In this document: positions 19,349 to 61,617 of the stretch, one piece after another
How positions within the stretch are numbered: the stretch's first letter is position 1
How the letters are laid out: each line of letters opens with the position of its first letter
DNA from: an uncultured Gammaproteobacteria bacterium
Lineage (GTDB): Bacteria; Patescibacteriota; Microgenomatia; CAZETR01; Amesbacteraceae
Assembly: GCA_964633995.1 (NCBI GenBank)
Contig: CAZWKN010000002.1
Location: 113,119 to 177,118, forward strand
DNA length: 64,000 nt
Reading direction: 5' to 3'
The notes under the pieces: model-generated
Told to the model about the DNA's origin: nothing
Databases searched by the model: none
Seen by the model: only the letters and a program-made list of their open reading frames with translations
Made by a program: the position numbers and the translations under genes

Positions 19349-21113
19349 ATATCAAATTAATCCCGTAATCGCCTGGCGAAAACCGTAGTTTCTCCTGATA
19401 ATCCCCATATTTTACAAGGTAAATATATTTTACCCCTAATCGTTTAATCATGTCCCGAGCCTTACTCCGGTCGGTCTCAGGTAATAAGGTTTTGGAGTAA
19501 ACAATTTTTTTATGTGTATAGTTTGCAACATATTTACGAAAATTTGCAAAGACAGCGGGCATGTTATCTCCATACCAGGCGCACTGCAAACATTCGGATG
19601 AATTGACCAGTATTTTTCCTGGGGGCGCTAATCGTAATTTTTCTAGGCCTGCTATTTCGTCTTGGGACACGCTATAAGTTGTGTAATTTATTTTATTTAT
19701 CTTGCCCAGGAGGATCGTTTTGAACAGGGCTTTGGGTGAAAGCATTATATGTTTTGTTTCAAGACTAGGACCTATAAACGTAAGCCCTTGTGTCGGTGCG
19801 GGCCAAAACTTTTTTGGGTTGACCGTAACAGCTGTTTTATCAACACTGAGTGTTAGAAATCTTGATGTTAAAACATGCTTAGGAATGTCTTTAACTTGAC
19901 CTGTAATTACAAAATGGTCTGGAAATAGCTTAACTTGAGCAGGCCCATAGTTCCAAATCTCGGACTGGTTTTGAAAGCTATCGATAACCGATGGCACATA
20001 AACTCTCAAATTATCTTCTGGGTTTGGCCAAATAAAGTATGGCTCCCGAAAATTTTCTGGGTATGCCCTAAGGTCAACGATAGTATGGGTAGCCAGATCA
20101 ATGCCGACCCTATAATACGGAGATTGATACCAAATAAATTTGTCGTCTCCTATTTGATGTGCTGGTGATGCACTTGGAAACTTGTGTAGATACCAGTCTG
20201 AAAATTCGGCCATCGTTTTAAACTTGGCCTTTTTGGCCAATAAAACTTTTAGCTGATTTTCAAATTCGCCTGAAAAAGTCTCTTTGGGAAAGTCGTTTTC
20301 CAAGCCAACTGTAATTTGAGAAAAAGAATTAGAAGTGTCGAGATAGGTGTCTACAAGCCTACTAAAATAATCGGTGTTATATTTTTCTTCGGTAGTGAAA
20401 TAGTCTTGGGTACTATACAGGCTACTTGAATATCCTCTTTTTGGTTCTCTGGCAGCCCATTGCAACGTAACTACTTTTATTTTGTTATCCAGACTATTGG
20501 CTGGAATGGCAGCATTGATCTTGTTTGGGTAATAGGGAACTGACCAATACGTGCCCCATATTTGATAGTTGTCAGTAGAAAATTGATCGGAACAACTAAG
20601 ATTTGCAGTAATCCCATATTTTTGCTGCATGTAGTCTAGAGAAAAACTATCTATCCACCACGCCCCAACCGACTTGGGATACTGGCCAAATTCTTGTTTA
20701 AATTTTTCAAATATTGTATCTATTAATTTTTTCCTATCGTTTTGAACATATCCTGATAAGAATACGGACCTAGCAAAATGCCACGAACCCGACTGGTTGT
20801 ACCCTACTCCTGAATTTTTTGCAAAAAACGGTGAGATTTCTAAAAACACTCCCTGTTCCTGGTTTGCAACCATTTTTTTGGTTTCGGCTGATAACTCCTT
20901 GTTATTCAGCGCGTCGTAAGTAAACAACCAGGTCGCGGGTAAATTATATTTTAATACAATTGCGTATTGGGCTTTTAGACTTTCAACAGGATCGTGGTTG
21001 TATTTGGAAAGTCTGACTGGGTTTACTATGGTAATGTATCTGTCGTCAGTATCAGCTTGTGCGGGCAATGTTGAAATTACTAATAACAAAAAGACCAGCG
21101 CAACTGTTTTCAT
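19305..21113 (-). CDS. Secreted protein (signal peptide), function unknown; possibly a carbohydrate-active or esterase-like fold
   Basis: N-terminal MKTVALVFLLLVISTLPAQA followed by a ~580-aa hydrophilic protein with several Cys. It is the only clearly secreted soluble protein in the locus. No motif I can assign with confidence. Confidence 0.45.
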   Translation of the reverse strand: MKTVALVFLLLVISTLPAQADTDDRYITIVNPVRLSKYNHDPVESLKAQYAIVLKYNLPATWLFTYDALNNKELSAETKKMVANQEQGVFLEISPFFAKNSGVGYNQSGSWHFARSVFLSGYVQNDRKKLIDTIFEKFKQEFGQYPKSVGAWWIDSFSLDYMQQKYGITANLSCSDQFSTDNYQIWGTYWSVPYYPNKINAAIPANSLDNKIKVVTLQWAAREPKRGYSSSLYSTQDYFTTEEKYNTDYFSRLVDTYLDTSNSFSQITVGLENDFPKETFSGEFENQLKVLLAKKAKFKTMAEFSDWYLHKFPSASPAHQIGDDKFIWYQSPYYRVGIDLATHTIVDLRAYPENFREPYFIWPNPEDNLRVYVPSVIDSFQNQSEIWNYGPAQVKLFPDHFVITGQVKDIPKHVLTSRFLTLSVDKTAVTVNPKKFWPAPTQGLTFIGPSLETKHIMLSPKALFKTILLGKINKINYTTYSVSQDEIAGLEKLRLAPPGKILVNSSECLQCAWYGDNMPAVFANFRKYVANYTHKKIVYSKTLLPETDRSKARDMIKRLGVKYIYLVKYGDYQEKLRFSPGDYGINLIFENSNSQIWEVNSL

Positions 21114-21116
21114 TCA

Positions 21117-21929
21117 TCAGGGAGTGTTTACTTTAAAGTTTAGTTCTGGATCGAAACGCCATTTCCTTCTGTTGGTATCCGAATAATAATTTAGAAATCT
21201 TAATCGATAAAATACCGCAAATGTGTCTATTAACATCTGGTATACGAAATAAATAAATTTTTTACTGGTAACGGTAGACGCTTTGCCAAAATCGAGTTTC
21301 AATTCAATCGGTGCTTCGTAAATTCTTTTAAAACCTAAGTAATGTGCAACTGCTAATATTTCTATATCAAATGCAAACTCTTTGATAATCAGCCTGGGCA
21401 ATACTTCCTCCAAAACCTGTCTTCGGTAACATTTTAAGCCTGCTTGAGTGTCCCTTATGTTTAAACCAAAGAGAATCTTTACAAGCAGGGAATACACGGT
21501 TGACACTACTTTTCTCTGCCATGGATAGATAACTTTTGAGGCAGGATGACGCTTTGACCCAACGACAATATCTGCGTTGTACCACTCAAAGTGCTCTAGA
21601 ATCATTGAAAGTCCGTTTGGATTGATATCCATACCAGAATCAATAAAGGCAATAATGTCTCCCTTGGATCTGGCCATGCCGTATCGGACAGCATGACCCT
21701 TTCCCCTATTAGTTTCATAGCCCACTACTTTGATGTCTTTAAACCTTTTTGCTAGAGGGAGAGCCTTGTCGTAGGTTTTGTCACTTTTTCCATCAACTAC
21801 ACAAATGATCTCCGACGGGTATCTAAGTTTCTGAAGGACGGCACGAAGGCGTAGTAGTTCACGCCGAATAGTTGCTTCCTGTTTATAGGCAGGTACTATG
21901 ACTGAGAGCAGTCTTACGGCTGAAGTCAT
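21117..21929 (-). CDS. Polyprenyl-phosphate glycosyltransferase (DPM1/GtrB-like GT2)
   Basis: LSVIVPAYKQEATI...IICVVDGKSDKT...NRGKGHAVRYGM...IAFIDSGMD. Confidence 0.8.
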   Translation of the reverse strand: MTSAVRLLSVIVPAYKQEATIRRELLRLRAVLQKLRYPSEIICVVDGKSDKTYDKALPLAKRFKDIKVVGYETNRGKGHAVRYGMARSKGDIIAFIDSGMDINPNGLSMILEHFEWYNADIVVGSKRHPASKVIYPWQRKVVSTVYSLLVKILFGLNIRDTQAGLKCYRRQVLEEVLPRLIIKEFAFDIEILAVAHYLGFKRIYEAPIELKLDFGKASTVTSKKFIYFVYQMLIDTFAVFYRLRFLNYYSDTNRRKWRFDPELNFKVNTP

Positions 21930-23041
21930 GCCACCCAGTAACCATTCGCAAATAAACCCAAGAATACCAGCATAGCCATGATATTACACAAAAAATAAAA
22001 AATTAAAAGTTTTGAACTCAGTTTTGATAAAAAAAGTCCCAAAAGGATAAAGGAGGGAAAACAAGTTAATGCGTATCTGGGCAATGAAGTGAGCGTTCCC
22101 GTAAGCGTGGGCGTAAGTAGACATAAAAAATTGAATATTGAATAGGATGGCCTTTGTTTTAGGAGTGAAATAACTGCTAGTGCAATAAATTCAACCCCAA
22201 CAAAAGCTTCAAGTAGGATAGTGGGGTACATTGGAATAGATTTGTCGACCGTAAGAATCATTTTTACATACCTCCAAATTACTTGATAAGGAAGAACTAT
22301 TTTTTCGCTACGAGACTGGCCAAATAATTTTTGAGCATGAACGAAAGCCAAATAATCTCCTGTGGTTTTATGTAAAAACAACATATATGAAATAAGCCCA
22401 AGAGGGACAAGAACTACCCCAACCAAACTTAAAAGAGAGGCCTTGCTCTCTGATCGCCTTCCAAGCCATTCTAGAAAAAGCGCTGGAAATATAAATATCC
22501 CCACTAGCCTGGTGTTAGCGGCCAGTGCTCCCAAAACACCCGCTAATAACCATTTATTCTTTCTGGAAAAATAAAAACTAGAGACGGTCAAAAGAAAAAA
22601 GACACCCTCGGTATAAACTGAGGTGAAAAAGAAACTTACCGGAAAAGCTAACAAAGCAAGTATGGTTAGATTGATTACTTTTGGGCCATAATCCATTCGA
22701 AGAAGTTTGTTAAAAACAAGTAAACCCACAAAAAAACTTAGTGTCGATATCCACGTACCAGTCAATATTCTATCTTTGAAAATTGGGGCGAATAAATTAA
22801 TTAAACGGGGATAAAGAGGGAAAAAAGCGTGTTGGGCATATCCATAGCCACTAGCAGCAATTGCTAGATAGAGATTGCCGTCAAAGTTCGCTCTAAAGTT
22901 AACAAGTGGATTTGATAAGTAAGTCTGGGTTGCCCCACCAAGATATTGGGTTGTTCGCGGTATGAACTGCCCTGTTAGCGCAACTATACTTACAATTAAC
23001 ACCTCCCACACAGCCACGAAAAATAAAAGTTTTTTAATCAT
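21926..23041 (-). CDS. Polytopic membrane protein, GT-C-like (DUF2029/GT87/PIG-V-like mannosyltransferase type)
   Basis: About 10 TM helices. Immediately downstream of a polyprenyl-P sugar synthase with a 4-nt overlap. Confidence 0.5.
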   Translation of the reverse strand: MIKKLLFFVAVWEVLIVSIVALTGQFIPRTTQYLGGATQTYLSNPLVNFRANFDGNLYLAIAASGYGYAQHAFFPLYPRLINLFAPIFKDRILTGTWISTLSFFVGLLVFNKLLRMDYGPKVINLTILALLAFPVSFFFTSVYTEGVFFLLTVSSFYFSRKNKWLLAGVLGALAANTRLVGIFIFPALFLEWLGRRSESKASLLSLVGVVLVPLGLISYMLFLHKTTGDYLAFVHAQKLFGQSRSEKIVLPYQVIWRYVKMILTVDKSIPMYPTILLEAFVGVEFIALAVISLLKQRPSYSIFNFLCLLTPTLTGTLTSLPRYALTCFPSFILLGLFLSKLSSKLLIFYFLCNIMAMLVFLGLFANGYWVA

Positions 23042-23815: not shown

Positions 23816-25429
23816 TTAGTTTGAAATTATTTTAAACGCTGGCTCACTATTTAAGAAATTTATTGTCTTGACGACGTTTACTCCGGCTGAAGGAATATCT
23901 TCTGGGGCAGCAACAATCATAGTTGAGTGAATGTCTCGAACTTTTTCCCAAGGAGTCGAAGTAAAGGTATATTTATCAAACTGCCTAACAGTAGAAAAAT
24001 TAAACTTGTCACGAAATGAGAGCTGGTGGTGCCTCTGAAATTTGGCTGGAGGGTAGGCGGAATAAAAAAGGAATAGTATGTATGGTTGATCGTATTTATC
24101 GGTGATGTATACTTTGGAATATTTGTCCTGATTTGACTGTACATAAGACACTAATTGTTTAAAACCATATTCCCAAGCAGAAGGATAGGTCTTGGGGTAG
24201 TGAGCATAATATTCATGTAAATATCTGGAAACTTGCCACACCATACAACTTACATAAATAAGTATGCAAACAACCTTACGCCTTTTGTAAACGAGTGAAA
24301 AGCAATAGTTAACTCCCAAGGCGATAATTATGGTTAATGGAACTATCATGTTTTGCGCTCTTAAGGCGTGGGGGGTTTGGAAAGTAAGAGCTGAAGCAAC
24401 CGGAGCAACTAATAACCAGATCCAGATTAGTTTTGAATAGGGTGTTTGATGTTTGATTAGAAAAATAACTCCAGCGACAAGAAAAAGTGCGTCAGTTATG
24501 TAAAGTAATCCAGTTTCAGGCACTTTGTTTCGTTCAATGACGTCACCGCTTATAAATAGAAAATTTCCATCAAAGTGATCAAAGTAATTCTTAAAATATT
24601 GAATGGAATAGATTACGGGGCGATTGTGAAGCACTTTCGCCATAAGCCCACTAAGTCCTATGCCGTGAAACCCACGTAATTCTCTTACCCTATTTAGTGG
24701 TCCTATATCAGATAACAAACCTACCCCAGAAAACCGAGAAATGGCGTCAGAGAAAAACACGGAGTGAACTAGGGGTAGTAATAATATAGCCGATAGGCCT
24801 AAGCAGAGAAGTAAGTTTTTTAAATTTTGCTTAAAGTGCTGGGGATTAGTTATAAACAATAATATGCCCAACAACGGCACAAGTACGCGAGCAGATTGAT
24901 AGGCATACATGGCAAAAACAAAATTGAGAAGTGAGAATTGAAAATTAAGAATATTTCCTGTTTTTAGCCATTTGATAAATTGCCACATGCCTATTAACAT
25001 CAAGGTTGTAGCCAAATTTACCTCCCAAGCACCACGAGAAAAATGAATGTGCCAGGGCGAAATAGCCAACAAGAGTGCTGAAAGAAAACCTACTCCTTTG
25101 AATAATTCATCTGCCAATAGCCACATGACTATAACGGCAAGTGTTCCCGCAATTACCGAAGGCAAGCGAACAGCAAATTCAGTTAATCCAAATAGTTTAA
25201 CAAAAGGAATTAAGATGTATGCGTATAGCGCGGGCTTGAAATCTCCAAACGATTCTAAGTTTACTGGCCATGCGTGGCCATGCTCGTCCTTGCCTGTTAA
25301 CAGCAACGAATACGCATTGTAACCCAAAGCAGCTTCATCGGCGTTTAAACCTGCCGGGTAATTTACTATCTGCCAGTAACGAAGGATAAAAGCCAGAGAA
25401 ATAATTAAAATAAATATTATTTTTTTCAT
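23816..25429 (-). CDS. GT-C fold membrane glycosyltransferase, PMT/ArnT-like (GT39/PMT_2-type); paralog 1 of 6
   Basis: RYWQI..YPAGLNADEAALGYNAYSLLLTGKDEHGHAWPV...SFGDFKPALYAY...RLPSVIAGTL; about 11 TM helices plus a C-terminal soluble domain. Confidence 0.7.
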   Translation of the reverse strand: MKKIIFILIISLAFILRYWQIVNYPAGLNADEAALGYNAYSLLLTGKDEHGHAWPVNLESFGDFKPALYAYILIPFVKLFGLTEFAVRLPSVIAGTLAVIVMWLLADELFKGVGFLSALLLAISPWHIHFSRGAWEVNLATTLMLIGMWQFIKWLKTGNILNFQFSLLNFVFAMYAYQSARVLVPLLGILLFITNPQHFKQNLKNLLLCLGLSAILLLPLVHSVFFSDAISRFSGVGLLSDIGPLNRVRELRGFHGIGLSGLMAKVLHNRPVIYSIQYFKNYFDHFDGNFLFISGDVIERNKVPETGLLYITDALFLVAGVIFLIKHQTPYSKLIWIWLLVAPVASALTFQTPHALRAQNMIVPLTIIIALGVNYCFSLVYKRRKVVCILIYVSCMVWQVSRYLHEYYAHYPKTYPSAWEYGFKQLVSYVQSNQDKYSKVYITDKYDQPYILFLFYSAYPPAKFQRHHQLSFRDKFNFSTVRQFDKYTFTSTPWEKVRDIHSTMIVAAPEDIPSAGVNVVKTINFLNSEPAFKIISN

Positions 25430-25430
25430 A

Positions 25431-27017
25431 TTATTTTAAGCCGACCACATAGAGCCCTGACGACCCATCGACGTATGGAATAGCCGCAAGCGGAATTAAG
25501 TTTGACTGGTCGGGTGGATGGTCGGGAATCTCATACTTGTCCCCCACTAAAAGCACTGAATTTCTAGTTCGTTCAGCTGGCCAATTAATTTTTTCAAAAT
25601 TAATCCCGTCGAAAAAACTTACCTCACCCACATCACCATAGATGTTATCAACCGATTTGGAATGGGAGAGGAAAAATCTGGGATCAATTTTGTTGTAATA
25701 CAGGAAATAGATATATGGTTGACCCAGGGAGGTGGAAAAAACAATACGATTATATTTATCTTTATTTTGGTTGACGATAGCTACTGCTTGTTTATATGGT
25801 GTCATCCAGTACTTGGAAAAATAGAACGGAGAGTGGACAAAATATAAATCCATAAAGTAGACCGTGCTAAACGCCAGAAAGGCAAAATAGACCAGAGTCA
25901 TTAGTTTGTTTTTAAACATAACCGACAAACCTATACCGCCAATAACCGACAACGGAATAACCATTGGCAAGGACCTAACTCCGGAAACTATATCCCGAGA
26001 CAAAGCTGATGGTAACGGTGAAAGCAGTAACCACAACCAAATTAGTTTATTGCGGTGTGATTTTGACATGATGAGTGCGTATAGTCCTAGTATTATGGGA
26101 ATAACCTCCGGGAAATGAAGATATCCGTAAAAAGGCAGAGCGTGCCTTGGATTTGACCAATCACCCTCACTAAATAAAAATCTAGGAGACAAGTGATTAA
26201 GATAACGTTGGACGATCCCTCTTAGTTGATCGTAGACTTCGGAATGGTATAAAACAAACAACGGACTGCTGGTAGTCGAGGTGTCTTGGTTTAGGATTTG
26301 ATTGATACTGTCTGCTGTTCTGGTGTAGTTAAACAAGCTAAATACCCGAAGTCGACCAGATTGGGTTTTTAAGTTAACGATCAGGGGAAAAACAAATATG
26401 GTCAGCACAGCAAGGGGCCGAACAAGTGTAGTCCATTTTGGTCTTAATGAAACAAGCAAGGCCAATAGGATTAATGGCGTAAACAGCTTAGAGCCTTGAT
26501 ATGTCCAAAAAGTCAGGCCTAGCATGATCGAGGCTAAAACAAATTTTTTTCTTAGGAATAGAGTTGCTCCTAGTGTTGTTAAAAGAAGGGCCAAATTGGC
26601 CTCCCATGCCCCTCGGGAGAAAATAATTGCCCATGGGGAAATGGTGAGCATAACGCTGGCAAACAAACCGGAACGTGTGCCAGATAGATGTGAAGTCAAA
26701 AGATACACCGCGATTATCAGGAGCGTACCCACAATGGCCGAAGGAAGTCGGGTAGAAAATTCGTTCAGGCCGAAGACGGCAGTAAACGGCACTGTAATGT
26801 AGACGTAGAGCCCTGGTTTATAATCGCCAAAAGATTTGAAAACAAGTGGCATTATCTGACCATGTTCATCGGCTCCTGTTTTTAAGAGTGAGAAGGAGTT
26901 ATAACCTAACGCAGCTTCGTCCCAGGTTAAACCAGCGGGTCGATCGGCTAGCCTGATTGTCCTTACAAGAAACGCTGTGGCAATAATAAGTATTAAGAAT
27001 AAATATTTCTTCGTCAT
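25431..27017 (-). CDS. GT-C fold membrane glycosyltransferase, PMT/ArnT-like; paralog 2 of 6 (tandem)
   Basis: RPAGLTWDEAALGYNSFSLLKTGADEHGQIMPL...SFGDYKPGLYVY...RLPSAIVGTL, collinear with 23816..25429. Confidence 0.7.
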   Translation of the reverse strand: MTKKYLFLILIIATAFLVRTIRLADRPAGLTWDEAALGYNSFSLLKTGADEHGQIMPLVFKSFGDYKPGLYVYITVPFTAVFGLNEFSTRLPSAIVGTLLIIAVYLLTSHLSGTRSGLFASVMLTISPWAIIFSRGAWEANLALLLTTLGATLFLRKKFVLASIMLGLTFWTYQGSKLFTPLILLALLVSLRPKWTTLVRPLAVLTIFVFPLIVNLKTQSGRLRVFSLFNYTRTADSINQILNQDTSTTSSPLFVLYHSEVYDQLRGIVQRYLNHLSPRFLFSEGDWSNPRHALPFYGYLHFPEVIPIILGLYALIMSKSHRNKLIWLWLLLSPLPSALSRDIVSGVRSLPMVIPLSVIGGIGLSVMFKNKLMTLVYFAFLAFSTVYFMDLYFVHSPFYFSKYWMTPYKQAVAIVNQNKDKYNRIVFSTSLGQPYIYFLYYNKIDPRFFLSHSKSVDNIYGDVGEVSFFDGINFEKINWPAERTRNSVLLVGDKYEIPDHPPDQSNLIPLAAIPYVDGSSGLYVVGLK

Positions 27018-28576
27018 AGTGCAGTAATATTAAAGGCGGTTGTCCCGTCTAAAAAGAGAATTTTTCCCAAGTCCGCACCTGACTTGGGATGATCTTGACT
27101 GGAAAACACAAGCACATGTTTTCCAGACGATGCCGAAATAGATTGGATGTCCCAATCGTTGACGAATTTAAACTTGTCGAAACCATCTACCCAGTACCAA
27201 TTGGCATGATAATCCCAGGCGAAATTAGGATCTTTTAATAATTTGTCCGAACTCCATCGCAAATTCCATAGCAAAAATTCATGTGGCTCTGCGTGACGTT
27301 TGGTAATAATAATTTCATCATATTCGGAATAATGGTGTCTGACAAATTCCGCCAACTGAGAATAGCCATATTGCCAACTAGCTGAATACATTTTAGGATA
27401 TTGAGAGAAATAGTAAAAAAAATAATTTGCACTAAGTGTTAGATAAAGTATTACAGTAGAAATCAGAATAATTTTACTGTATTTGGTCGCTACGAATACT
27501 AATCCCGAAGCGGTAACTATTTGGACGATTGGCAGCATGGTAGTGGCCCGAATAACAGCATATTGATCACGAGTTATGGCGGCAGGTAAGGGAGCCAGTA
27601 AAAGCCAAGTTAATAATAATTTATCTTTTCTGAACAATAAAAGGGTTAGGCCAATGTAAAAGAAGGGCAGACTTACAATAGGTAAAACTCCAAAGTGAGG
27701 AATGCTGTACTGGTATTGGGTTCCACCTGATAAAAACAAAAACTTGGGAGAAAAGTAACCAACATAGTTGGTAAGCACCTTAGTTACTACAAATAGTGGC
27801 CTGTTATAAACCAGGCGCGACAACAAAGCTGGTAATCGAGAAGTGTTTCTTTGGTGTTCTATTTGACCGATAGCGCCGGTGTCTAAAATACCTACCCATG
27901 TGCTCCGCGCCCGAGATTGAGGAGAAAATAGAATAACAACCGCTGGAATGAAAAACAGCACAATCCACAACCAGGTCATTTTTGATCTAATAAATTTAGG
28001 TATTTGGCTTGCCATAAGCAGGGGTGAGAAAATTCTGGTGTTGTGGTAAGCATAAAGACTTAGTCCGCTAAAAAGAGCTGAAAATGAATAGTTGTTATTG
28101 AGAATGTAAACTAACCCCAAAGATGAAAGAAGTACTGACCAATTCGATTGGAAAACGGCTCTTGATGGAAAGAAAGTCCAGGGATCCATGGCCATAAATA
28201 AAGCGGATAATACGGCTATTTTCTTATTTTTGCTCCATAGATATGCGGCATGAAATACAATAAAAATACAGAGTGTACCGATAAGTGCATGTGGCAATCT
28301 AGCTGAAAAATCCGACGGACCCAATAATGCAAATACTGCGGAGGTGAAATAAAGATTTAACGGCAAGGGATAATCGCCATAAGCTCTAAAATTGCCTATC
28401 GGCAAGATTTTTCCCCACTGATCTGCTCCTGTATGCAGGAGTGAAAGTGCATTATAGGCATGACTTACTTCGTCCCAGTTTAATGCAGGAGGAAAGGATT
28501 CTAAATGGTACAACCGCAAAAAACCACCTACGGCAATTATCAGGCTTAAAACTAAAAGAGTGCGAAAGCGGTCCAT
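27014..28576 (-). CDS. GT-C fold membrane glycosyltransferase, PMT/ArnT-like; paralog 3 of 6 (tandem)
   Basis: FPPALNWDEVSHAYNALSLLHTGADQWGKILP...RLPHALIGTL. Confidence 0.65.
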   Translation of the reverse strand: MDRFRTLLVLSLIIAVGGFLRLYHLESFPPALNWDEVSHAYNALSLLHTGADQWGKILPIGNFRAYGDYPLPLNLYFTSAVFALLGPSDFSARLPHALIGTLCIFIVFHAAYLWSKNKKIAVLSALFMAMDPWTFFPSRAVFQSNWSVLLSSLGLVYILNNNYSFSALFSGLSLYAYHNTRIFSPLLMASQIPKFIRSKMTWLWIVLFFIPAVVILFSPQSRARSTWVGILDTGAIGQIEHQRNTSRLPALLSRLVYNRPLFVVTKVLTNYVGYFSPKFLFLSGGTQYQYSIPHFGVLPIVSLPFFYIGLTLLLFRKDKLLLTWLLLAPLPAAITRDQYAVIRATTMLPIVQIVTASGLVFVATKYSKIILISTVILYLTLSANYFFYYFSQYPKMYSASWQYGYSQLAEFVRHHYSEYDEIIITKRHAEPHEFLLWNLRWSSDKLLKDPNFAWDYHANWYWVDGFDKFKFVNDWDIQSISASSGKHVLVFSSQDHPKSGADLGKILFLDGTTAFNITAL

Positions 28577-30120
28577 ATGAGAACTATAAATAACCCAAAT
28601 AAACTTAGTAAATTGCCAATATGTCTTACGTCAGTGTCCTTAAATGATAGCTTAACAATGTGAACCCCGCTGGGAACTTTTAGTGAGACTAGCCCAGAAG
28701 CAGATGGCGTGATCGGGGTAGGTTTTGAATCTAGTTGAGCCGTCCAGCCGGGGAAGTAAACGACTGGCAATAACACCCGGGTTGATTCGTTGGGTACACT
28801 GACAGTAAAACTGTTGACCGAATTGCCTCGGTTGGCTACTAAAACAAACGGTGACAAAGCGGGAGCGAACTGAGTTGGAGGGTTACCAGCGATTTTTGGC
28901 CAATAATCTTTGTGGGCTGTCCTGCTTTCGTCCCAAAACCTACCTGAAAAGAATTGGTTGTCTGATAGATTAAGCCAAATGTCAGGACGAAAAAAAGAAA
29001 AATTGGTAATGATTATCAAAAGTAATAAACCGGTGATCAAGTAACGATTGGCCAACTTACTTGCCAAAGCTCCACCAGCCATAGAGATAAAAAAGATGCC
29101 TACGCCCACATACCTCCAGGGGAATTGGATGAATTTTAAAAAAGGTAACAAATTCCAAATAAAAGCTGATTTTCCATGGGCCATAAAGAGGGCCAATAGA
29201 CCTAGGAAAACAAACCCTACCGCTTTCTTGTTTCGGGTAACAATAACGGCCAGAAGTGCAACCGCCCATTGAATTTGGCCTAATGAGATACTAAGGAATT
29301 TTTTAGCCCATAGCGAGGCCCCGTAACCCCAGTATCTGGAAATAAACAATTCCTTAAGCGTGGCGAAATGAATATGATAGTCGTAATAACCCTGGGTTGT
29401 CCTGGCTAAATCAACCAGATGGCTCTCAAATATCACCGGAAAAATATAGTAGGAAGAGAGGATCACGGATACAATACCAGCAAGCATAAGTTTAAAAAAA
29501 GACCAAAATTTGTGCTGGAATACCCAATAAATTGCCAAAAAGGGTAGGAACATGATTACAGATAGATTGTGAGTGGTGATAAGTCCGGCCAGACAAAGAC
29601 TGAAGGCAATTAAGTATTTTGAATTTTTGGTCTCTAAAAATTTGTCCAAGGCTAAAAGAATCAGAGGAAAAAAAACAAAGGCGAGCGACTCAGGCAACGC
29701 AGCCCGAACCCAGACATCGGTTGACCTATATGGTGCATAGGTATAAAGCAATGCTGATACAAGTCCGCCCCAACTCCCCCAGTGGTGTTTGCCAAATAAA
29801 TACATGGCGACTCCGGAAGCTAGTAGTGAAAAGGCGAATGCAGCTTTCGTTGAATCCAAGATCGACAAACCCAACAAATGAAACATTTCTCCTAGCCAAA
29901 AACCGGTTTGGGGATAATAGTTGAAAAGGGGTTCGCCATAACCCATTTCTGCGTCTGAGGTCCAACGGCAGGGAAATTGACGTTCTTGGACACATTTATC
30001 AAACTCGAATAACCTAAAATGGGGGAAATCCTGCATGGTGTAGATACCTGACCTAAACATGAGCGAGCAGGTGGGAAGCGCGAGAAGTAAGAAGATTAGG
30101 ACCCACTTGAACCGTGCCAT
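28552..30120 (-). CDS. Polytopic membrane protein of a 'PTPS-related/YfhO-like' GT-C-type family with C-terminal beta-rich domain; paralog A of 3
   Basis: N-terminal GIYTMQDFPHF...FDKCVQERQFPCRWTSDAEMGYGEPLFNYYPQ, shared with 50642..52309 and 57570..59204. The family name is from memory of PF10131-like proteins and is not verified. Confidence 0.45.
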   Translation of the reverse strand: MARFKWVLIFLLLALPTCSLMFRSGIYTMQDFPHFRLFEFDKCVQERQFPCRWTSDAEMGYGEPLFNYYPQTGFWLGEMFHLLGLSILDSTKAAFAFSLLASGVAMYLFGKHHWGSWGGLVSALLYTYAPYRSTDVWVRAALPESLAFVFFPLILLALDKFLETKNSKYLIAFSLCLAGLITTHNLSVIMFLPFLAIYWVFQHKFWSFFKLMLAGIVSVILSSYYIFPVIFESHLVDLARTTQGYYDYHIHFATLKELFISRYWGYGASLWAKKFLSISLGQIQWAVALLAVIVTRNKKAVGFVFLGLLALFMAHGKSAFIWNLLPFLKFIQFPWRYVGVGIFFISMAGGALASKLANRYLITGLLLLIIITNFSFFRPDIWLNLSDNQFFSGRFWDESRTAHKDYWPKIAGNPPTQFAPALSPFVLVANRGNSVNSFTVSVPNESTRVLLPVVYFPGWTAQLDSKPTPITPSASGLVSLKVPSGVHIVKLSFKDTDVRHIGNLLSLFGLFIVLIWTAFALF

Positions 30121-30137
30121 AGCTCTATTATAGCTGG

Positions 30138-31751
30138 TTATGGCAGTTTGGGGAGTTTCTCAGCAACTGTTATTGTGGGTTCGCCGTTGGGAAGGTCGAT
30201 GTGAAAATAGTTTGGGAAATTCGGCGGAAACTCATCTGATTTACCCACAAACAAAGTGGGTACACGTACCTCCTCTTTGGGATGAATACTTCCAAACCTG
30301 TATTTGCCCAGGCGATAGCCGTCTAACTGATCTAGAAATTTAAGATTTTTGGCCTCAAAAACTAGCCAGGTGTTTGATGCAGCCTGATAGTCCTTGGGGG
30401 GGATTTTTTGAAAAAATGCCAAATAGATGTGTGGTTCTGACAAACCGGTACTAATTTGAACTTCTGAAAACCTGTCGGCAATATCAATAAATCTAGTAAA
30501 CGCCTGGTTTCGACCAAATAGCATGGATTGGCCTATTCTGTAAGAAGAAGTGTAAAAATACTCCTGTAAAAAAAACACGCAGGAGATGAAATAAAGAAGA
30601 CTAATAACTGGTAGATACTTTTTCTTTATAAGTGATATGCCACTGGCGGCGGCGATTGTCAAAAACGGAATCATGGACGCAGCTCTATTTGCTGCGTATC
30701 CCGGGCCTTTGGCAAGAGCAGCTGGTAAGGGGGCGACCAACAACATGGTCAGTATCAGGATGTTTGACGAATTTGGCTTTTTGATAGTAGAGATGCAGAA
30801 AAAAAGTAGAAATGGTAATTCAATTAAGTAAAGTAATCCTGTCCCAGGGAGCAATCCATATGTGCCTTCTGCGGGACCAGTTGTAAACAAAAATTGTGGA
30901 GAAAAATAAGTAAGATAGTTTTGAGTAAAAAGGCGAAAGACGTAGACTGCTTTATTGGAAAAAAATCTGGATACCGCATCGGGTAAACCTGCGTTTCTTG
31001 ACATAAATCTCATATCGCTGACGTATTGCCATTTGTCAGTAGGACTTAGTATTGAAACATCGGACACCCTGTGGACGCCTGCACCAAAATATGAGAGTAC
31101 GGCAGGAAGTGAGAGTACAGCTAAAACAATGATGAATTTAGTAAACCCAAGAAATGGTTTTTTTATATGAGCAAACGCTAAAAAGAGCAGTAGTATCGGA
31201 GTGATTAATCTAGCCGAATGATACGAATAAAGATTGATGGCAAAGACGACCCCTGACCAAATAAAAGAATTTATCAAAAATAAATAAATCCCAAGAGGAA
31301 GAAAAAAGGTGACAAGATTGGCCTCAAATGCCCCCCGCGATAGACCTATTGACCAGGGAGAAATGGCTGTTAATGCCGCAGTTATCAGGGCGGTGTTGTC
31401 GGACGTCAGTTTTTTTGACAATAAATAGACCGAGACTATGGCCAGTGTCCCAATTAGAGCATTTGGCAAACGTGTGGCAAATTCGTTTAAGCCGAACAAT
31501 TTTATTGACGGTAGACTTAGAAAGACATATAGCGGCATTTTGTAATCACCAAACGATCTTAAATTTTTATAGGGCAACCTATACCAAGGTGTCCCCCATT
31601 CGTCCATTCCTGTTTGTAAAATAGAATAAGCGTTGTAGCCAAAGGCGGCTTCATCAGGTGTAAACCCTGGTGGATTAGTTGATAGTTTGTAAACACGGAG
31701 AAATAGCCCAATGGCTACTACAAAACTAAGTATTAAAACATGACGATTCAT
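30138..31751 (-). CDS. GT-C fold membrane glycosyltransferase, PMT/ArnT-like; paralog 4 of 6
   Basis: NPPGFTPDEAAFGYNAYSILQTGMDEWGTPW...SFGDYKMPLYVF...RLPNALIGTL. Confidence 0.7.
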   Translation of the reverse strand: MNRHVLILSFVVAIGLFLRVYKLSTNPPGFTPDEAAFGYNAYSILQTGMDEWGTPWYRLPYKNLRSFGDYKMPLYVFLSLPSIKLFGLNEFATRLPNALIGTLAIVSVYLLSKKLTSDNTALITAALTAISPWSIGLSRGAFEANLVTFFLPLGIYLFLINSFIWSGVVFAINLYSYHSARLITPILLLFLAFAHIKKPFLGFTKFIIVLAVLSLPAVLSYFGAGVHRVSDVSILSPTDKWQYVSDMRFMSRNAGLPDAVSRFFSNKAVYVFRLFTQNYLTYFSPQFLFTTGPAEGTYGLLPGTGLLYLIELPFLLFFCISTIKKPNSSNILILTMLLVAPLPAALAKGPGYAANRAASMIPFLTIAAASGISLIKKKYLPVISLLYFISCVFFLQEYFYTSSYRIGQSMLFGRNQAFTRFIDIADRFSEVQISTGLSEPHIYLAFFQKIPPKDYQAASNTWLVFEAKNLKFLDQLDGYRLGKYRFGSIHPKEEVRVPTLFVGKSDEFPPNFPNYFHIDLPNGEPTITVAEKLPKLP

Positions 31752-32182
31752 AGTCTATACAAGCTGGTAAAAGCCAGTGAATTCAAATCATCAACATACA
31801 CCTCCAAGTGGGAGGGATCAGATGGGGATATGGTTATGGTTAGTTTGTCTGTGGAATTTATTGGAGGAAATTGAAAACGAAGATTGGATGGATCTCCAGT
31901 ATTCCGACCCGAAAAAGTGGAAGTGAATAAACGAGTATTGGTTGAATCGGTTATCTCAAACATAAATTGATCAGTATTTTGCAATCCAGGATTTTTGAAG
32001 CTTAAAACAACAATGTTTGTTCCCGAGTGCCTTGGCGAAAACGTCGACGAAATTGGACCTATTATTTGGGTAAAGTGAGTTCCTGGCTTTGAATAATCGA
32101 GCCTGTTTTTGACAAAAAACCTAGGGATGAGAGAAGAGACGCCCAAAAAGATAATTGGAAGCAAGAATAGACTATACTTCAT
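31748..32182 (-). CDS. Small signal-peptide/anchored protein (144 aa), Ser/Thr-rich, predicted beta-rich; unknown
   Basis: MKYSLFLLPIIFLGVSSL then a hydrophilic S/T/N-rich domain. 4-nt overlap with the upstream GT-C gene implies co-translation with the glycosyltransferases. Confidence 0.45.
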   Translation of the reverse strand: MKYSLFLLPIIFLGVSSLIPRFFVKNRLDYSKPGTHFTQIIGPISSTFSPRHSGTNIVVLSFKNPGLQNTDQFMFEITDSTNTRLFTSTFSGRNTGDPSNLRFQFPPINSTDKLTITISPSDPSHLEVYVDDLNSLAFTSLYRL

Positions 32183-33320
32183 ATTCAGCCTTTCGGTCTA
32201 AAACCATCCACAAAGACGCGGCAGCAAGTATGGTGTTTGAACAATTGAGTAATAACGTCAAAATGTGTTTATCGATTAGGCTGGAAATCGGCGGGAGTAA
32301 CAATAATCCCGGATCAAACGGGGAAAAAATACCCCAGGTTAGAAACGGGTCCGAAGATAATATAAGCGACCCAAACCATCCCAACAAAAACAAAGCCCCG
32401 GGAAGCCAATTACGAGTATTGACCAAGTACAAGCTGATAAAGGGCACGGCCCACAAAGCCCATTGGGGGTTAAATCTAATGCCTAGCAAGACAAGTAAAA
32501 TTATCGGGAGGTAAAACGTTGCTGGTTTTTGAGTTGATTTAAAGGCGTATAGCCAAACCATAATAAGGGCTCCTGGAATTAGTAGGATGGCTTGATCAAA
32601 TCCAATCGAGAGTGATAATTGAAACAGCCTTTGGCTAAGCCCCGATAGAAGAGTATCCTGAAAAAATGCTGGTGTGGTTACAAAAGGGAGCAAGGTGACG
32701 AGATATGTACCTACACCCAATATAAATAATTTTGGTTTTTTTAACCAAAGGGGCAATAGTAAAAGCGGATAAGCCTTAAATGAACCCCCTAACCCCAATA
32801 AAATTACTGCCCAAACAGGAGAAACCACTAAACTGGCAACAGTCAGCAGAACCGGAAGAATATCAATTTGACCCATTAAAACGGTAACATAAATGCTAAT
32901 TGGATTAAAAAACCAAAGCGCCAATAAGAGAATTTTATTTTTGGGGCGGACTGCCTTTGAGACCAGAAGTCCGGTGAGTATGTGTAACAAGATCAGAGGT
33001 AATTTGGTTAGAAACAGAAAGGTGTGGATACCAGAGACGTCGACGGCGGTATTACCCATCGCAAGCCATGACCTGAAACCCAATCCCGCAAATAAGTTTA
33101 CGATAGGAAATAACAGACCAAAAATAAGATAGGTAAGCGGTGGATATACAAATGGCCCGGAGCTGCTAGGATGTAGGGCTGTGTAACTGTAGATATTGAA
33201 GACCCCCGATGAAAGATGTTTGGATAGTGAATAAATTATCTTTAAGTCGGGGTGGAAGTAAAACGGGGCCAGAAGTAAATATGTAAACGCAGCTAATAAA
33301 AATATGTGTTTAACCTTCAT
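32172..33320 (-). CDS. Polytopic membrane protein, GT-C-like (DUF2029/GT87-like)
   Basis: WFFNPISIYVTVLMGQIDILPVLL motif shared with 33310, 40325 and 49368 paralogs. Confidence 0.5.
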   Translation of the reverse strand: MKVKHIFLLAAFTYLLLAPFYFHPDLKIIYSLSKHLSSGVFNIYSYTALHPSSSGPFVYPPLTYLIFGLLFPIVNLFAGLGFRSWLAMGNTAVDVSGIHTFLFLTKLPLILLHILTGLLVSKAVRPKNKILLLALWFFNPISIYVTVLMGQIDILPVLLTVASLVVSPVWAVILLGLGGSFKAYPLLLLPLWLKKPKLFILGVGTYLVTLLPFVTTPAFFQDTLLSGLSQRLFQLSLSIGFDQAILLIPGALIMVWLYAFKSTQKPATFYLPIILLVLLGIRFNPQWALWAVPFISLYLVNTRNWLPGALFLLGWFGSLILSSDPFLTWGIFSPFDPGLLLLPPISSLIDKHILTLLLNCSNTILAAASLWMVLDRKAEYEV

Positions 33321-34497
33321 GGTGATAACTATAGTGTAGTAAATTGAAAAAGAAAATCAAAATTATGCCAAGTGTTGAAAGATTGACAAGCCAGGTAGTT
33401 TCCAAAATTGCTCTAAGCATAGGAATAAAGGGTTCCCACCAGTTGTGGTACATATTTGCAAAATTAAAGAGTGAGACAAGCACGATACTGAATAGTTGAG
33501 ATTTGTTCTTGGTAGAGGTGATCGCCAAAAAAGGAATAGCAGCCCCAAGATATCTCTCGTGCATTCTGGTTAAGAATAGAAACGCGGCATAGGTTGTTAG
33601 CCCAAAAGCCCAATAGATATTGGTTTTGGAAATTTTTTTTATAATAAATATTAGACATACTGCAAATAGTAGATAACCTGCTAGTCTATAATTGGTATCG
33701 TGTATTTTCCCCAAGCCAGTTAATAAAGACCAGAAGTTAAATGCGTGATCAGTTACATAATCAGATCCTGATCCGGTTTGAATCTTGTTTACATAAGTTG
33801 AAAAGGTAAAGGAAAACGGCAAAGAGATGATAAAAAATGTGGTCAAAAAAACTACAAATGACTGAATGATTGTTTTAGGTTTGTGAGACCTTAGGAAAAA
33901 TAGAGCATAAAGAGGAATGAAAATTATGGTGGACTGCTTAGTGAGTAACGCCAGAGTAAAAAAACTTACAGAAACAAACGGCTTTTTTATCAGATGGAGG
34001 CTGAGAAGTGTAAACAAGACGGGGATTGACTCAATCTGTCCCCAATAGGAGCTGTTGTAAACCAAAGCCGGATTAAGACAAATCAACATCATGGAAAGCC
34101 AATAATTTTTGGTAATTTTGTAAATAAGCACAGCCAATCCCACGTCTGCCAAAATAGCCCAAAACTTAAAAAATCCAGGGTGAGTTGCTGGACGTTCTAG
34201 AAACCAGACCAAGCGAGATGGATAGAGCTGAAACGAAGAATTGAGATGGGTTGAGAGGCCGATGGTCGATCTGTACAGATATTCCGAACCGGTAAATAAA
34301 GCCAAAGCTATCGGAGGATAGGTCGGGGTCATGGTGTGATACTTGTAAACAAACTCCCGAGAGTACACACCCACTGGACCGTTGGTTAGGATATCTATAC
34401 CCCAGGAAATGTGGTTATTCACATCGCCACTGAAACCTGAAAATATAAACAAACACCGGACGATAAAAGCAATTATGATGAGAGAAAAATATTTCAC
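33310..34497 (-). CDS. Polytopic membrane protein, GT-C-like (DUF2029/GT87-like); tandem paralog
   Basis: LNPALVYNSSYWGQIESIPVLFTL... Confidence 0.5.
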   Translation of the reverse strand: MKYFSLIIIAFIVRCLFIFSGFSGDVNNHISWGIDILTNGPVGVYSREFVYKYHTMTPTYPPIALALFTGSEYLYRSTIGLSTHLNSSFQLYPSRLVWFLERPATHPGFFKFWAILADVGLAVLIYKITKNYWLSMMLICLNPALVYNSSYWGQIESIPVLFTLLSLHLIKKPFVSVSFFTLALLTKQSTIIFIPLYALFFLRSHKPKTIIQSFVVFLTTFFIISLPFSFTFSTYVNKIQTGSGSDYVTDHAFNFWSLLTGLGKIHDTNYRLAGYLLFAVCLIFIIKKISKTNIYWAFGLTTYAAFLFLTRMHERYLGAAIPFLAITSTKNKSQLFSIVLVSLFNFANMYHNWWEPFIPMLRAILETTWLVNLSTLGIILIFFFNLLHYSYHHEG

Positions 34498-36098
34498 TGG
34501 CTCTTGGTAACAAGATAAAAAATTGGTTGGTTGTAGGGGTTAGTCGAGGTGGAAAGAACTTTTACTCCTGCCGGAGGACTAGTGCGCCAATCCCAATCTC
34601 CGGCAACATCGTCTCTTTGACTAATTAAGTAAACTGCGTTGGGAAAAAGCCTAGATCCAAATTGAACATTTTTGGAGTCGTCGGAAAAATTGCCAAAAAA
34701 GTATTTTCCATCGAGCGAAAAGCCATTGTAGCCCGGTAGAATTTCGTTTTCCGGTTGATCCTTTTTGAAAATCGCCTGAAACCTTAAGGGTGAATAGCGC
34801 GTATAAAATAAAAATCTTATTAGAGAAGGCTCGTAACTATTGTTAATGATTACCCTAGAATAATCTGGCGATAATTTGGCAATATCTATCATTGCTTGTT
34901 TAAAGCCTACATGCCACCATCTCCAAGAAGTTTGCGGATAATGAACAAGGTAATAGTGTGCTCCCGACAAAAAGTTGATACTCAAAAGAACAAGTGTGGA
35001 GAGGAATAGTAACTTGGTTTTTTTTAGATAAAGTAACCCAGAGCCCAAAATGACTGCCAACGGAATGGTCATTAAAAATGATCTGGTTGCATGCCAACTA
35101 CCGTCAATTGTTAAAGCGGCGGGAATAGGGGCTAGCAACAACCAAAATATCCACATAAATTCACGTTTTTTGAACAGGTATATCAATCCTAAAAGTAGTA
35201 GGGGTGAGGTCAGGGGTAATAATTCACCAAAATATTGCATATTGTGGCGAACTGTTGGGTCGCCCCTAACAAAAAGAAATTCGGTAGAAAAACTACGTAA
35301 ATAATTCGTTAAAAACCGCAGAGAAATAGTTTCAACTTTGTTGTGAAACAGGCGCTCAAGTAGGGAGTTGTCGCCATTTCGAAGCGAAAGCACTGTGTCA
35401 GTCAATTCACGACTTTGTAGAATGCTGAGTGTTTGAAATCTCTCGGTCGCTTTGCCAAAGACAATACTAGTCAAAAAGGGGGCTGTTAAAATTAACAATA
35501 ACGCAATCGAAACAAATTGAGGACGAACTTTTTTGTAAAGATGAAGACCTAGAATTAGTAGTGGGGTGAATACTGTGGCAGTGCTATAGGTATAAAAGGT
35601 AAGGGCGAACAGAACGGTCGAAAGGAGAAATTTTCGCCGAATGAACATTACAACTGCGGCCAGAGTGAGATAGGCTAGGATTACAACCTCAAACGCGGCG
35701 CGTGAATAGTGAATATGCCATGGCATAAATGCAATAAACGCTGCGGAATATAACGCAAGGGATTTAGACCTTGATACGAGGTAGACTAGACCAAACAACA
35801 ACACAGGGGTAAGCGAACCAAACACAACCTCTGGTAACCTGACTCCCCATTCCGTGTTACCAAATATTAAAATAGACGGCACGGTGGCATAAATAAGCAA
35901 AGGAGCTCGCCATTCCGCCAAGGAATGGATATAGACCGGAAGTGGTTGCCCGTAAAAATCTTTTCCAGTCTTAAGTAATGAGTATGCCTGGTATCCTACA
36001 TCTATCTCGTCGCCAAAAAGTTCCGGAGGCGAATGGGTGAGCATTCCACCCCTTAAAATACTCGAAATAATCAGGATTACTGACAACAATAAGGGCAT
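34494..36098 (-). CDS. GT-C fold membrane glycosyltransferase, PMT/ArnT-like; paralog 5 of 6
   Basis: HSPPELFGDEIDVGYQAYSLLKTGKDFYGQPLPV...RLPEVVFGSL. Confidence 0.7.
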   Translation of the reverse strand: MPLLLSVILIISSILRGGMLTHSPPELFGDEIDVGYQAYSLLKTGKDFYGQPLPVYIHSLAEWRAPLLIYATVPSILIFGNTEWGVRLPEVVFGSLTPVLLFGLVYLVSRSKSLALYSAAFIAFMPWHIHYSRAAFEVVILAYLTLAAVVMFIRRKFLLSTVLFALTFYTYSTATVFTPLLILGLHLYKKVRPQFVSIALLLILTAPFLTSIVFGKATERFQTLSILQSRELTDTVLSLRNGDNSLLERLFHNKVETISLRFLTNYLRSFSTEFLFVRGDPTVRHNMQYFGELLPLTSPLLLLGLIYLFKKREFMWIFWLLLAPIPAALTIDGSWHATRSFLMTIPLAVILGSGLLYLKKTKLLFLSTLVLLSINFLSGAHYYLVHYPQTSWRWWHVGFKQAMIDIAKLSPDYSRVIINNSYEPSLIRFLFYTRYSPLRFQAIFKKDQPENEILPGYNGFSLDGKYFFGNFSDDSKNVQFGSRLFPNAVYLISQRDDVAGDWDWRTSPPAGVKVLSTSTNPYNQPIFYLVTKSQ

Positions 36099-36117
36099 TT
36101 CTGATATTATACATTTA

Positions 36118-36993
36118 ATGTTGTCGGTAATAATAATCTCTTACAATACCAAGGATGTTACGTTGGAGTGTTTGAGCAGGCTAAATAAATCTAAAGGGGT
36201 CAAGTATGAAACTATTGTGGTAGACAACGCCTCTACCGATGGGTCTGCTCAAGCTATTCTGAAGACTTTTCCGGATGTTAAATTAGTTGAAAGTAAAGTA
36301 AATTTGGGATTTGCTGGCGGAAATAATTTGGGAATGAAAATGGCCAAAGGGGAAAAGTTGATACTACTGAATTCAGATTGTTTCGTAAACCCGGACACTT
36401 TAGCCAATTTACCTGACTTAGACGTGGTCGGGTGCAAACTACTAAATAAGGATGGTTCGGTTCAACAATCTTGGGGCTATTTTCCAACGCTTAGAAGGAT
36501 TACCCAAATGATGTTTTTTGTCGATAATTTTCCTATTATCCGCAAGTTCATCGATTCGATTCACGTAAGAGATGTGTCCAGGTACCAGACGCAACATGAG
36601 GTCGACTGGGTTACAGGGGCGTTTGTAATGGTAAGAAGGATTATCTTTGAAACGGTGGGGGGTATTGATGAAAAGTATTTTATGTATGGAGAAGAAATGG
36701 AGTGGATGTATAGAATAAAAAAAGCTGGTTTTAAGATTTGGTATTCTCCGGAACCCCTGGCTACACACTTGTTAGGCGCTAGTTCGTCAAACCGAGCACC
36801 TGCTGTCGTTGGGGAAATTAAGGGATGGATGTATTGGTTTGCAAAACACAACCCGGTTTGGCAACAGAAACTCCTGCCTTTGGTAATTTTGATTGGATGT
36901 TTGCTTAGAGTTGTGCTTAAGCCAGCTATGTCGAAGTATTATTTGCAAACAATTTCCGAAATTTTTGCCCCGTCCAGGAAACGAGTGCCATAA
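36118..36993 (+). CDS. GT2 family glycosyltransferase
   Basis: MLSVIIISYNTKDVT...TIVVDNASTDGS...LILLNSDCFV. The track ORF starts at 36037; the internal start at 36118 avoids overlap with 34494..36098. Confidence 0.8.
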   Translation: MLSVIIISYNTKDVTLECLSRLNKSKGVKYETIVVDNASTDGSAQAILKTFPDVKLVESKVNLGFAGGNNLGMKMAKGEKLILLNSDCFVNPDTLANLPDLDVVGCKLLNKDGSVQQSWGYFPTLRRITQMMFFVDNFPIIRKFIDSIHVRDVSRYQTQHEVDWVTGAFVMVRRIIFETVGGIDEKYFMYGEEMEWMYRIKKAGFKIWYSPEPLATHLLGASSSNRAPAVVGEIKGWMYWFAKHNPVWQQKLLPLVILIGCLLRVVLKPAMSKYYLQTISEIFAPSRKRVP

Positions 36994-61260: not shown

Positions 61261-61617
61261 TTATTGAATATCTGTTTTTTTGATAATACTGGTAAGGATG
61301 TAGGTGAGTTCTTTAGATTCTTGAAGAAGAGCATCAAACTCTAGGTCGGTAAATTCTACTGCCTCTTTGAGACCGGCAATCCAGATGGAAAACTCCCTTA
61401 GTTCTTTGCGGGATGTTTTTAGACATTTGACAAAATCTTTTTTGCTCATGGCCTCACTGGCTTCACAATAATTTGCGCCAGCTGAACCCGAAGACGAGAC
61501 CAACTGGGGAATTAGGCGGGCTGTTAGTGGTGTAACTTTAATCTTCTTACAAAGCCTAATTGTTCGTAGGTGAAAACTTTTAAATCTTTCTTCAAGATTT
61601 TGGATTTTATTTTCCAT
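61261..61617 (-). CDS. Four-helix-bundle protein ('23S rRNA intervening-sequence protein' family, TIGR02436/PF05635-like)
   Basis: 118 aa; ...PQLVSSSGSAGANYCEASEAMSKKDFVKCLKTSRKELREFSIWI... matches the family hallmark (S-GANI-EG...S-KDF-..L.IA.GS..E). Confidence 0.65.
   Translation of the reverse strand: MENKIQNLEERFKSFHLRTIRLCKKIKVTPLTARLIPQLVSSSGSAGANYCEASEAMSKKDFVKCLKTSRKELREFSIWIAGLKEAVEFTDLEFDALLQESKELTYILTSIIKKTDIQ

Follow-up and report, generated by a model that had tools for sequence, protein, structure and literature searches.

Three PTPS_related membrane proteins in a Microgenomates glycosylation island are probable GT-C-fold glycosyltransferases with lipid-linked sugar donors

Teichoic acids, cell-wall polysaccharides, O-antigens and proteins are decorated by systems that combine a family 2 glycosyltransferase (GT2), a flippase and a membrane-embedded glycosyltransferase of the GT-C fold (PMC8035078, PMC5836110, PMC11127046, PMC12041528). 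In this three-component scheme the GT2 enzyme makes a polyprenyl-phosphate sugar inside the cell, the flippase carries it across the membrane and, at the outer face, the GT-C enzyme hands its sugar on (PMC8035078, PMC5836110, PMC11127046); PgfM1, for example, a YfhO-family enzyme, has PgfS as its GT2 partner (PMC12041528). The PTPS_related family (PF10131) is placed in the Pfam GT-C clan CL0111 and described as of unknown function (PMC7801869). Here we analyse three members of this family, paralogs A, B and C, encoded in a stretch of 64,000 nucleotides (the window) of contig CAZWKN010000002.1, positions 113,119 to 177,118, from an uncultured bacterium with an Amesbacteraceae lineage. An earlier sequence-only reading of the window had called the function of such proteins essentially unknown, which is fair for PF10131, whereas YfhO-family enzymes have been characterised genetically (PMC5836110, PMC8035078, PMC12041528). 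We consider it probable (roughly 80%) that A, B and C are active class A GT-C-fold glycosyltransferases of a PTPS_related/YfhO-like clade that use lipid-linked sugar donors.

28552-30120, minus strand: paralog A, 522 amino acids (aa), predicted PTPS_related (PF10131) GT-C-fold membrane glycosyltransferase
50642-52309, plus strand: paralog B, 555 aa, of a divergent subfamily that lacks the two loop cysteines, PF10131 at 31.7 bits
57570-59204, minus strand: paralog C, 544 aa, subfamily with GT2 fusions in other genomes, PF10131 at 23.0 bits (E 3.4e-5)

The coordinates and lengths of these open reading frames (ORFs) match exactly those reported before. Pairwise alignment gives 34% identity between A and C over 523 residues (E 9e-96) and 27% between A and B over 545 residues (E 5e-45), and a family hidden Markov model (HMM) run against all ORFs of the window picks out these three and no others, with scores of 715, 630 and 451 bits. 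Judged by these alignments the three are true paralogs, with a homology far above chance. They share a common layout of an N-terminal block, about 11 transmembrane (TM) helices, a small beta-sandwich and a last TM helix. The source organism belongs to the Microgenomates (Patescibacteria), the best matches being metagenome-assembled genomes (MAGs) of Amesbacteria, Woesebacteria, Daviesbacteria and Shapirobacteria.

An AlphaFold2 model of A, computed from an alignment of 55 sequences, has a predicted local distance difference test score (pLDDT) of 94.5 and a predicted template modelling score (pTM) of 0.93. In this model (residue numbering follows A unless stated otherwise) TM1 spans residues 2-22 and is followed by a 65-residue first loop with short helices and by about ten more TM helices up to residue 376. 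A soluble region (377-496), whose beta-sandwich covers residues 426-493, lies between TM11 and the last helix. The 12 or so TM helices and the C-terminal beta-rich domain proposed earlier are recognisable as about 11 TM helices followed by the beta-sandwich, but the last TM helix had been missed.

28636-28863, minus strand: extracytoplasmic beta-sandwich domain of A, residues ~420-495, with a conserved PGW motif (457-459)
28558-28632, minus strand: final TM helix of A, residues 497-521, after the soluble domain; model helix and hydropathy peak

A Foldseek search with the model returned AftA, ArnT and AftD as top matches, with Pmt4 and Pmt2 likewise among the top structural matches, and every significant match is a GT-C enzyme; all the structural matches have a lipid-donor transferase fold. 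Going by the predicted structure, we confidently assign the family to GT-C class A. The earlier suggestion of "glycosyltransferases or glycan polymerases" is supported in its first half, while a polymerase finds no specific support among these matches; a Wzy-like polymerase or O-antigen ligase was rejected for the same reason.

The conserved N-terminal block by which the three proteins had been grouped is real, although its wording needs correction, as A has QD instead of HD, C has IPCRW instead of FPCRW, and B has GLGQPTFTFTY instead of GYGxPLFNYYP. We assessed conservation in the 55-sequence alignment of close relatives and in a distant set, for which 14 PF10131 proteins (from Saccharimonadales, Parcubacteria, Levyibacteria, Chloroflexi including Amarolinea, and Massilia) were aligned, giving 17 sequences in all.

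29911-30048, minus strand: first extracytoplasmic loop block of A, residues 25-70, with the invariant columns (55-sequence alignment) G25, D31, R36, C43, P50-C51-R52-W53, G62, P64 and F66

A conserved first-loop acid is present in D31 (codon at 30028-30030, minus strand), which does not vary among the 55 close relatives or among the 17 sequences of the distant set. It is located nine residues past TM1, in the first extracytoplasmic loop; the catalytic acid of GT-C class A enzymes sits in that place, shortly after TM1. To judge from fusion proteins described below, in which a single TM helix lies between a cytoplasmic GT2 domain and the HD motif, the D31 loop must be extracytoplasmic. The charged or polar residues invariant among the 55 relatives are D31, R36, R52, K92, R139, E144, H184, H315, R336 (in QFPWR) and D387, all of which are retained by A, B and C and by 25 members of the B subfamily. 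Across the distant set D31, H184 and W459 occur in 17/17 sequences, and R52, W53, R139, E144 and R336 are nearly invariant; D31, R52/W53, R139, E144, H184, QFxWR and W459 are each found in 15-17 of the 17. Distant PF10131 members likewise have P-x-R-W, GYGxP and PGW in common with the trio. Since D31 and its companions are kept in these distant proteins, the N-terminal block is a signature of the whole PF10131 family and not of A, B and C alone. The Pfam model itself starts at residue 66 of A, downstream of the conserved first-loop block.

Both C43 and C51 are present in 53 of the 55 sequences and both are replaced in the other two, including B. That the two cysteines are retained together and lost together suggests a C43-C51 disulfide in the outer loop. 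In the B subfamily the pair is replaced by an invariant Ala and a conserved Val, and about 25 B orthologues keep H30, D31, R54, W55, K94, R141, E146, H186 and QFPWR (B numbering).

Profile alignment with the PMT_2-type GT-C paralogs of the window sets K92 opposite an invariant R94, P130 opposite P132 and R139 opposite R139, with E144 one residue off E143; a local hhalign comparison of the same proteins aligned only TM2-TM5, at 34% probability. D56 was considered as the catalytic residue and rejected, as it is not conserved in the distant PF10131 members or in the B subfamily, whereas D31 is invariant.

The family assignment rests on several partial matches. Against the Pfam gathering cut-off of 26.4 bits for PF10131, A (26.8 bits) and B (31.7 bits) score above and C (23.0 bits) just below. 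The YfhO-like affinity proposed earlier is weaker in Pfam terms: residues 436-493 of A reach 26.6 bits with PF09586 (YfhO), under its cut-off of 28.5 bits, and B and C have no match. In NCBIfam, the C-terminus of A weakly matches the PgfM1 model, and B and C again have no match. At the profile level, however, hhalign aligns the family with a true member of the YfhO family (L070:414-2798, with a PF09586 score of 76.6 bits) over 150 columns, from TM2 to TM6, with 93% probability and E 2.7e-7. Among 55 family members PF10131 matches 47 and YfhO 18 at E<=1e-3, and PMT_2 matches 10. The three proteins match just the first half of the 621-position PF10131 model.

A library-wide HMM search found 20,939 cluster representatives (50% identity) at E<=1e-3 and 7,124 at E<=1e-30; the family is very large and already catalogued by Pfam and NCBI, and A, B and C add to its membership. 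NCBI names the relatives "6-pyruvoyl-tetrahydropterin synthase-related protein". This name is a misnomer for A, B and C, because hmmscan (E<=1) found no catalytic domain of that synthase in any of them.

Fusions provide insight into the partner enzymes of the family. In other Microgenomates a GT2 domain is fused to a family domain, as seen in five cluster representatives (P0125, P0136, P0141, P0145, P0152) and in six uninterrupted genomic ORFs. In several representatives of ~820-830 aa the GT2 domain is N-terminal and the family domain follows.

L020:6213-8624, L027:7497-9911, L037:7366-9954, L045:6655-9096, L060:9227-11638 and L073:9224-11659: GT2+family fusion ORFs, ~800-860 aa
61617-62390, minus strand: GT2 gene, 257 aa, PF00535, candidate polyprenyl-phosphate-sugar synthase for C
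62387-63187, minus strand: second GT2 gene of the same type, 266 aa, PF00535

The GT-C part of every fusion is closest to paralog C (36-46% identity). The fused GT2 domains are of two types, one Dpm1/ALG5-like and the other rhamnosyltransferase-like. The GT2 genes 61617-62390 and 62387-63187 are on the strand of C and just upstream of it, the first at a distance of 2.4 kb. The product of 61617-62390 has 48-50% identity with the Dpm1-like fused GT2 domains (L020, L027, P0145), and that of 62387-63187 has 42-46%. The rhamnosyltransferase-like type is 31-39% identical to 36926-37783 and 27-39% to 36037-36993. Fusion and proximity together suggest that the C subfamily is tied to a specific GT2 partner. 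Among the best NCBIfam matches of the two genes, none of which reaches its threshold, are PgfS, ArnC and dolichyl-phosphate hexose transferase, and from these we infer that 61617-62390 works on polyprenyl phosphate; for 62387-63187 the top match is PgfS (78.5 bits). A PTPS_related domain together with a second GT-C domain (PMT/PMT_2) was observed in ORFs of 727-1118 aa (L044:10001-13357, P0121, P0144, P0151), which are either genuine fusions or read-through of adjacent genes.

The three genes had been said to sit among glycosyltransferases, and Pfam bears this out with 15 GT2, 4 GT1/GT4 and 7 PMT_2 proteins in the surrounding genes. The further genes comprise four methyltransferases, a carbamoyltransferase, a short-chain dehydrogenase, a Wzx-type flippase, and an S-adenosylhomocysteine hydrolase with a PfkB kinase. 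By its gene content the whole 64-kb window is a glycosylation island.

23816-31751, minus strand: conserved GT-C array around A, with the PMT_2 genes 23816-25429, 25431-27017, 27014-28576 and 30138-31751 (PMT_2/PMT matches)
59201-60715, minus strand: PMT_2-type GT-C gene directly upstream of C with a 4-base overlap, PF13231 at 35.1 and PF02366 at 34.2 bits
53833-55311, minus strand: Wzx-type flippase candidate, 492 aa, PF13440 at 168 bits, PF01943
52245-53855, minus strand: 536-aa orphan membrane protein with a predicted GT-C fold, a conserved neighbour of family genes

Around A the genes are arranged as PMT2-FAM-PMT2-PMT2-PMT2-GT2 (FAM being the family gene), an order that recurs in the loci L002, L004 and L026, and paralog B closes a five-gene membrane-protein operon (45078-52309). 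Counting 46415-48013 (see below), the window has eight PMT_2-like GT-C genes, and the island at least 12 GT-C-type genes. Among the immediate neighbours of family genes in 80 related loci, PMT_2-type GT-C genes are the commonest (113 counts), followed by other family members (62), with orphan membrane proteins, GT2 and Wzx coming next; family members commonly stand in tandem, in arrays of 2-4. A Wzx homologue is found at most three genes from a family member 26 times across these loci. No GtrA-type flippase was identified among the window genes scanned.

These data allow us to propose a mechanism. A cytoplasmic GT2 enzyme, for C possibly the product of 61617-62390 or 62387-63187, would charge polyprenyl phosphate with the sugar of a nucleotide sugar. 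The lipid-linked sugar would then be flipped across the membrane, the Wzx-type protein 53833-55311 being a candidate flippase, and at the outer face the family protein would pass the sugar to a surface acceptor. The invariant D31 is proposed as the catalytic base, and K92, R139, E144, H184 and R336 (QFPWR) may hold the donor phosphate or the acceptor, while the small beta-sandwich that precedes the final TM helix probably helps in binding the acceptor. The three paralogs most likely differ in the sugar that they add or in the linkage that they form. As the most likely acceptor we favour a cell-surface glycopolymer built by the many GT2/GT1 enzymes and the Wzx pathway of the island, because the island is of a polysaccharide type; Ser/Thr-rich surface proteins are the second possibility.

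Several points weigh against this interpretation. The activity of the three proteins is deduced from fold and context, we infer the donor type, the residue roles and the acceptor, and the parts given to D31, K92, R139 and E144 follow from position and conservation. Sequence searches of solved structures with 3- and 55-sequence profiles gave nothing meaningful (best E 0.06, an alkane monooxygenase), and none of the solved structures is of a family member. The Pfam scores are marginal (23-32 bits, with C below the cut-off), and the YfhO match of A, also below its cut-off, spans just 58 C-terminal residues. A forced global profile alignment, of near-zero confidence, sets the "DE" motif of the PMT_2 proteins opposite D56 and not D31. 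On the donor side, none of the ten GT2 proteins of the window that were scanned reached an NCBIfam equivalog threshold, the GT2 candidates of the window are devoid of TM helices, and most fused GT2 domains are rhamnosyltransferase-like and need not make a monophosphate-linked sugar. A literature survey on the function of PF10131/PTPS_related, a link to AglS and GT-C enzymes of Patescibacteria found no experimental study of the family.

The best surviving alternative differs from our interpretation in the acceptor only. A, B and C could be protein O-glycosyltransferases that transfer sugar from polyprenyl phosphate to Ser/Thr of secreted or membrane-anchored proteins, in the manner of the PMT enzymes and of PgfM1 and PgtC2. 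The latter two, of the YfhO family, act with PgfS or GtrB as GT2 enzymes and glycosylate streptococcal proteins in their Ser/Thr-rich regions (PMC12041528). The weak match of the C-terminus of A to the PgfM1 model, the presence of PgfS among the best sub-threshold matches of both GT2 genes upstream of C, and Pmt4 and Pmt2 among the top structural matches are all compatible with this. However, no obvious Ser/Thr-rich acceptor is encoded nearby, the sole secreted orphan (19305-21113) not being Ser/Thr-rich, and the bulk of the island (GT2/GT1, Wzx, methyltransferases and a carbamoyltransferase) is typical of polysaccharide synthesis; fold similarity does not separate protein from glycan acceptors. 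We regard protein O-glycosylation as possible but unlikely.

A diphosphate-linked oligosaccharide donor would make A, B and C oligosaccharyltransferases, ligases or polymerases, with en-bloc transfer as by STT3, PglB or AglB. The nearby Wzx-type flippase is of a kind that typically handles diphosphate-linked repeat units, and 53833-55311 may instead serve such a pathway. Yet the columns of the family conserved at >=85% contain no WWDxG motif, a small beta-sandwich takes the place of an STT3-type C-terminal domain, and the fusions with Dpm1/PgfS-like GT2 domains point to a monophosphate sugar donor. The role would better suit the orphan 52245-53855, which has no Pfam match and is predicted to have a GT-C fold with an AglB/STT3-like C-terminal domain, and whose gene overlaps the Wzx gene; going by this model, it is a better candidate for en-bloc transfer than A, B or C, for which we consider such a donor improbable. 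That the family consists of non-catalytic GT-C-fold scaffolds or lipid-binding subunits aiding PMT_2-type neighbours, as PIG-U/GAB1 do in the glycosylphosphatidylinositol (GPI) transamidase, might be read from the nearly constant adjacency of family genes to other GT-C genes, but is hardly credible given that structural matches to catalytic GT-C enzymes score about twice as high, that a charged-residue set including the first-loop Asp is invariant across phyla in the way of an active site, and that members fused to a GT2 catalytic domain look like enzymes of a pathway.

Further genes of the island were noted alongside. The gene 46415-48013 (plus strand) is Pfam-negative, yet its sequence makes it a PMT_2-type GT-C paralog (E 1e-43 to 23816-25429), an example that Pfam under-calls GT-C enzymes here. 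A weak AftD-like gene is located at 9348-11315. The only sizeable apparent gap of the array around A holds a 144-aa ORF with an N-terminal hydrophobic helix (31748-32182, minus strand), and at the matching position L002, L004 and L026 have ORFs of ~184-227 aa. The protein 19305-21113 (minus strand; 602 aa), at the edge of the GT-C array, is Pfam-negative and carries a signal-like helix at its N-terminus. Between the Wzx gene and C, 55327-57560 (minus strand) encodes the S-adenosylhomocysteine hydrolase and the PfkB-family kinase (possibly an adenosine kinase), a pair that fits the recycling of by-products, as the island has four methyltransferases.

Four Pfam-negative multi-TM proteins of 382-425 aa (32172-33320, 33310-34497, 40325-41497 and 49368-50645) form one paralogous family (BLASTP E ~1e-20), and proteins homologous to them repeatedly turn up beside the GT-C arrays of related loci; it is possible that they are a Wzy-like polymerase or a further GT-C type. 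For five other multi-TM ORFs neither a Pfam match nor a paralog within the window was detected: 4280-6547 (plus strand; 755 aa, about 11 TM helices), 21926-23041 (minus), 45078-46436 (plus), 48010-49371 (plus) and 63133-63999 (minus). Finally, the title "uncultured Gammaproteobacteria bacterium" stands on the records of many loci, among them L001, L005 and L011-L013, although their arrays are of the Microgenomates type and their family members have 40-50% identity; these MAG titles look like mislabelled taxonomy.

What is added here to the catalogued family is a confident class A GT-C fold, a candidate catalytic Asp outside the Pfam model, a set of conserved charged residues and fusions with GT2 partners. 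The window likewise shows that, in a bacterium with a very small genome, surface glycosylation takes up 64 kb or more, including twelve or more GT-C enzymes and several families of membrane proteins for which Pfam has no model. By analogy with mycobacterial arabinan and mannan, one could speculate that Microgenomates, with genomes of ~1 Mb, assemble a large part of a complex surface glycan on the outer side of the membrane, with large batteries of GT-C enzymes fed with lipid-linked sugars. This idea, which draws on the number of GT-C-type genes in the island and on the tandem arrays of family members in relatives, seems to us distinctly doubtful. If it were true, the PTPS_related family would be a chain-building rather than a decorating enzyme, and the GT2 fusions would be self-contained bifunctional enzymes whose lipid-linked sugar is made inside and used outside.

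Compared with PF10131 at large, A and B lie over the cut-off and C just under it, and distant members share the conserved residues of all three; the A and C subfamilies carry the covarying cysteine pair in the loop, which B is without. The likeness to the YfhO family (YfhO of B. subtilis and S. aureus, Listeria Lmo1079, streptococcal PgfM1 and PgtC2) consists in the GT-C fold and in an extracytoplasmic domain between the last two TM helices, and the topology described for YfhO, with a loop between the last two TM helices (PMC5836110), matches that of A. However, YfhO proteins have ~800-950 aa as against 522-555 aa in A, B and C, and the outer domain comprises 389 residues in B. subtilis YfhO (PMC5836110) but about 120 in A. 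YfhO works genetically with a GT2 partner, and for the present family such a coupling is indicated by fusion and proximity. The two C-terminal TM helices of CsbB/GtrB are absent from the partner GT2 proteins here.

The ArnT/PMT_2-type enzymes (GT39/GT83-like) have a "DE" motif right after TM1, while A, B and C have (H/Q)D and a loop that is about 20 residues longer and contains P-C-R-W; the C-terminal domain and the final TM helix differ as well. The WWDxG motif and the STT3-type C-terminal domain of STT3, PglB and AglB are absent from A, B and C, and, in contrast to these enzymes, the Dpm1-like GT2 fusion suggests a monophosphate donor for the family.

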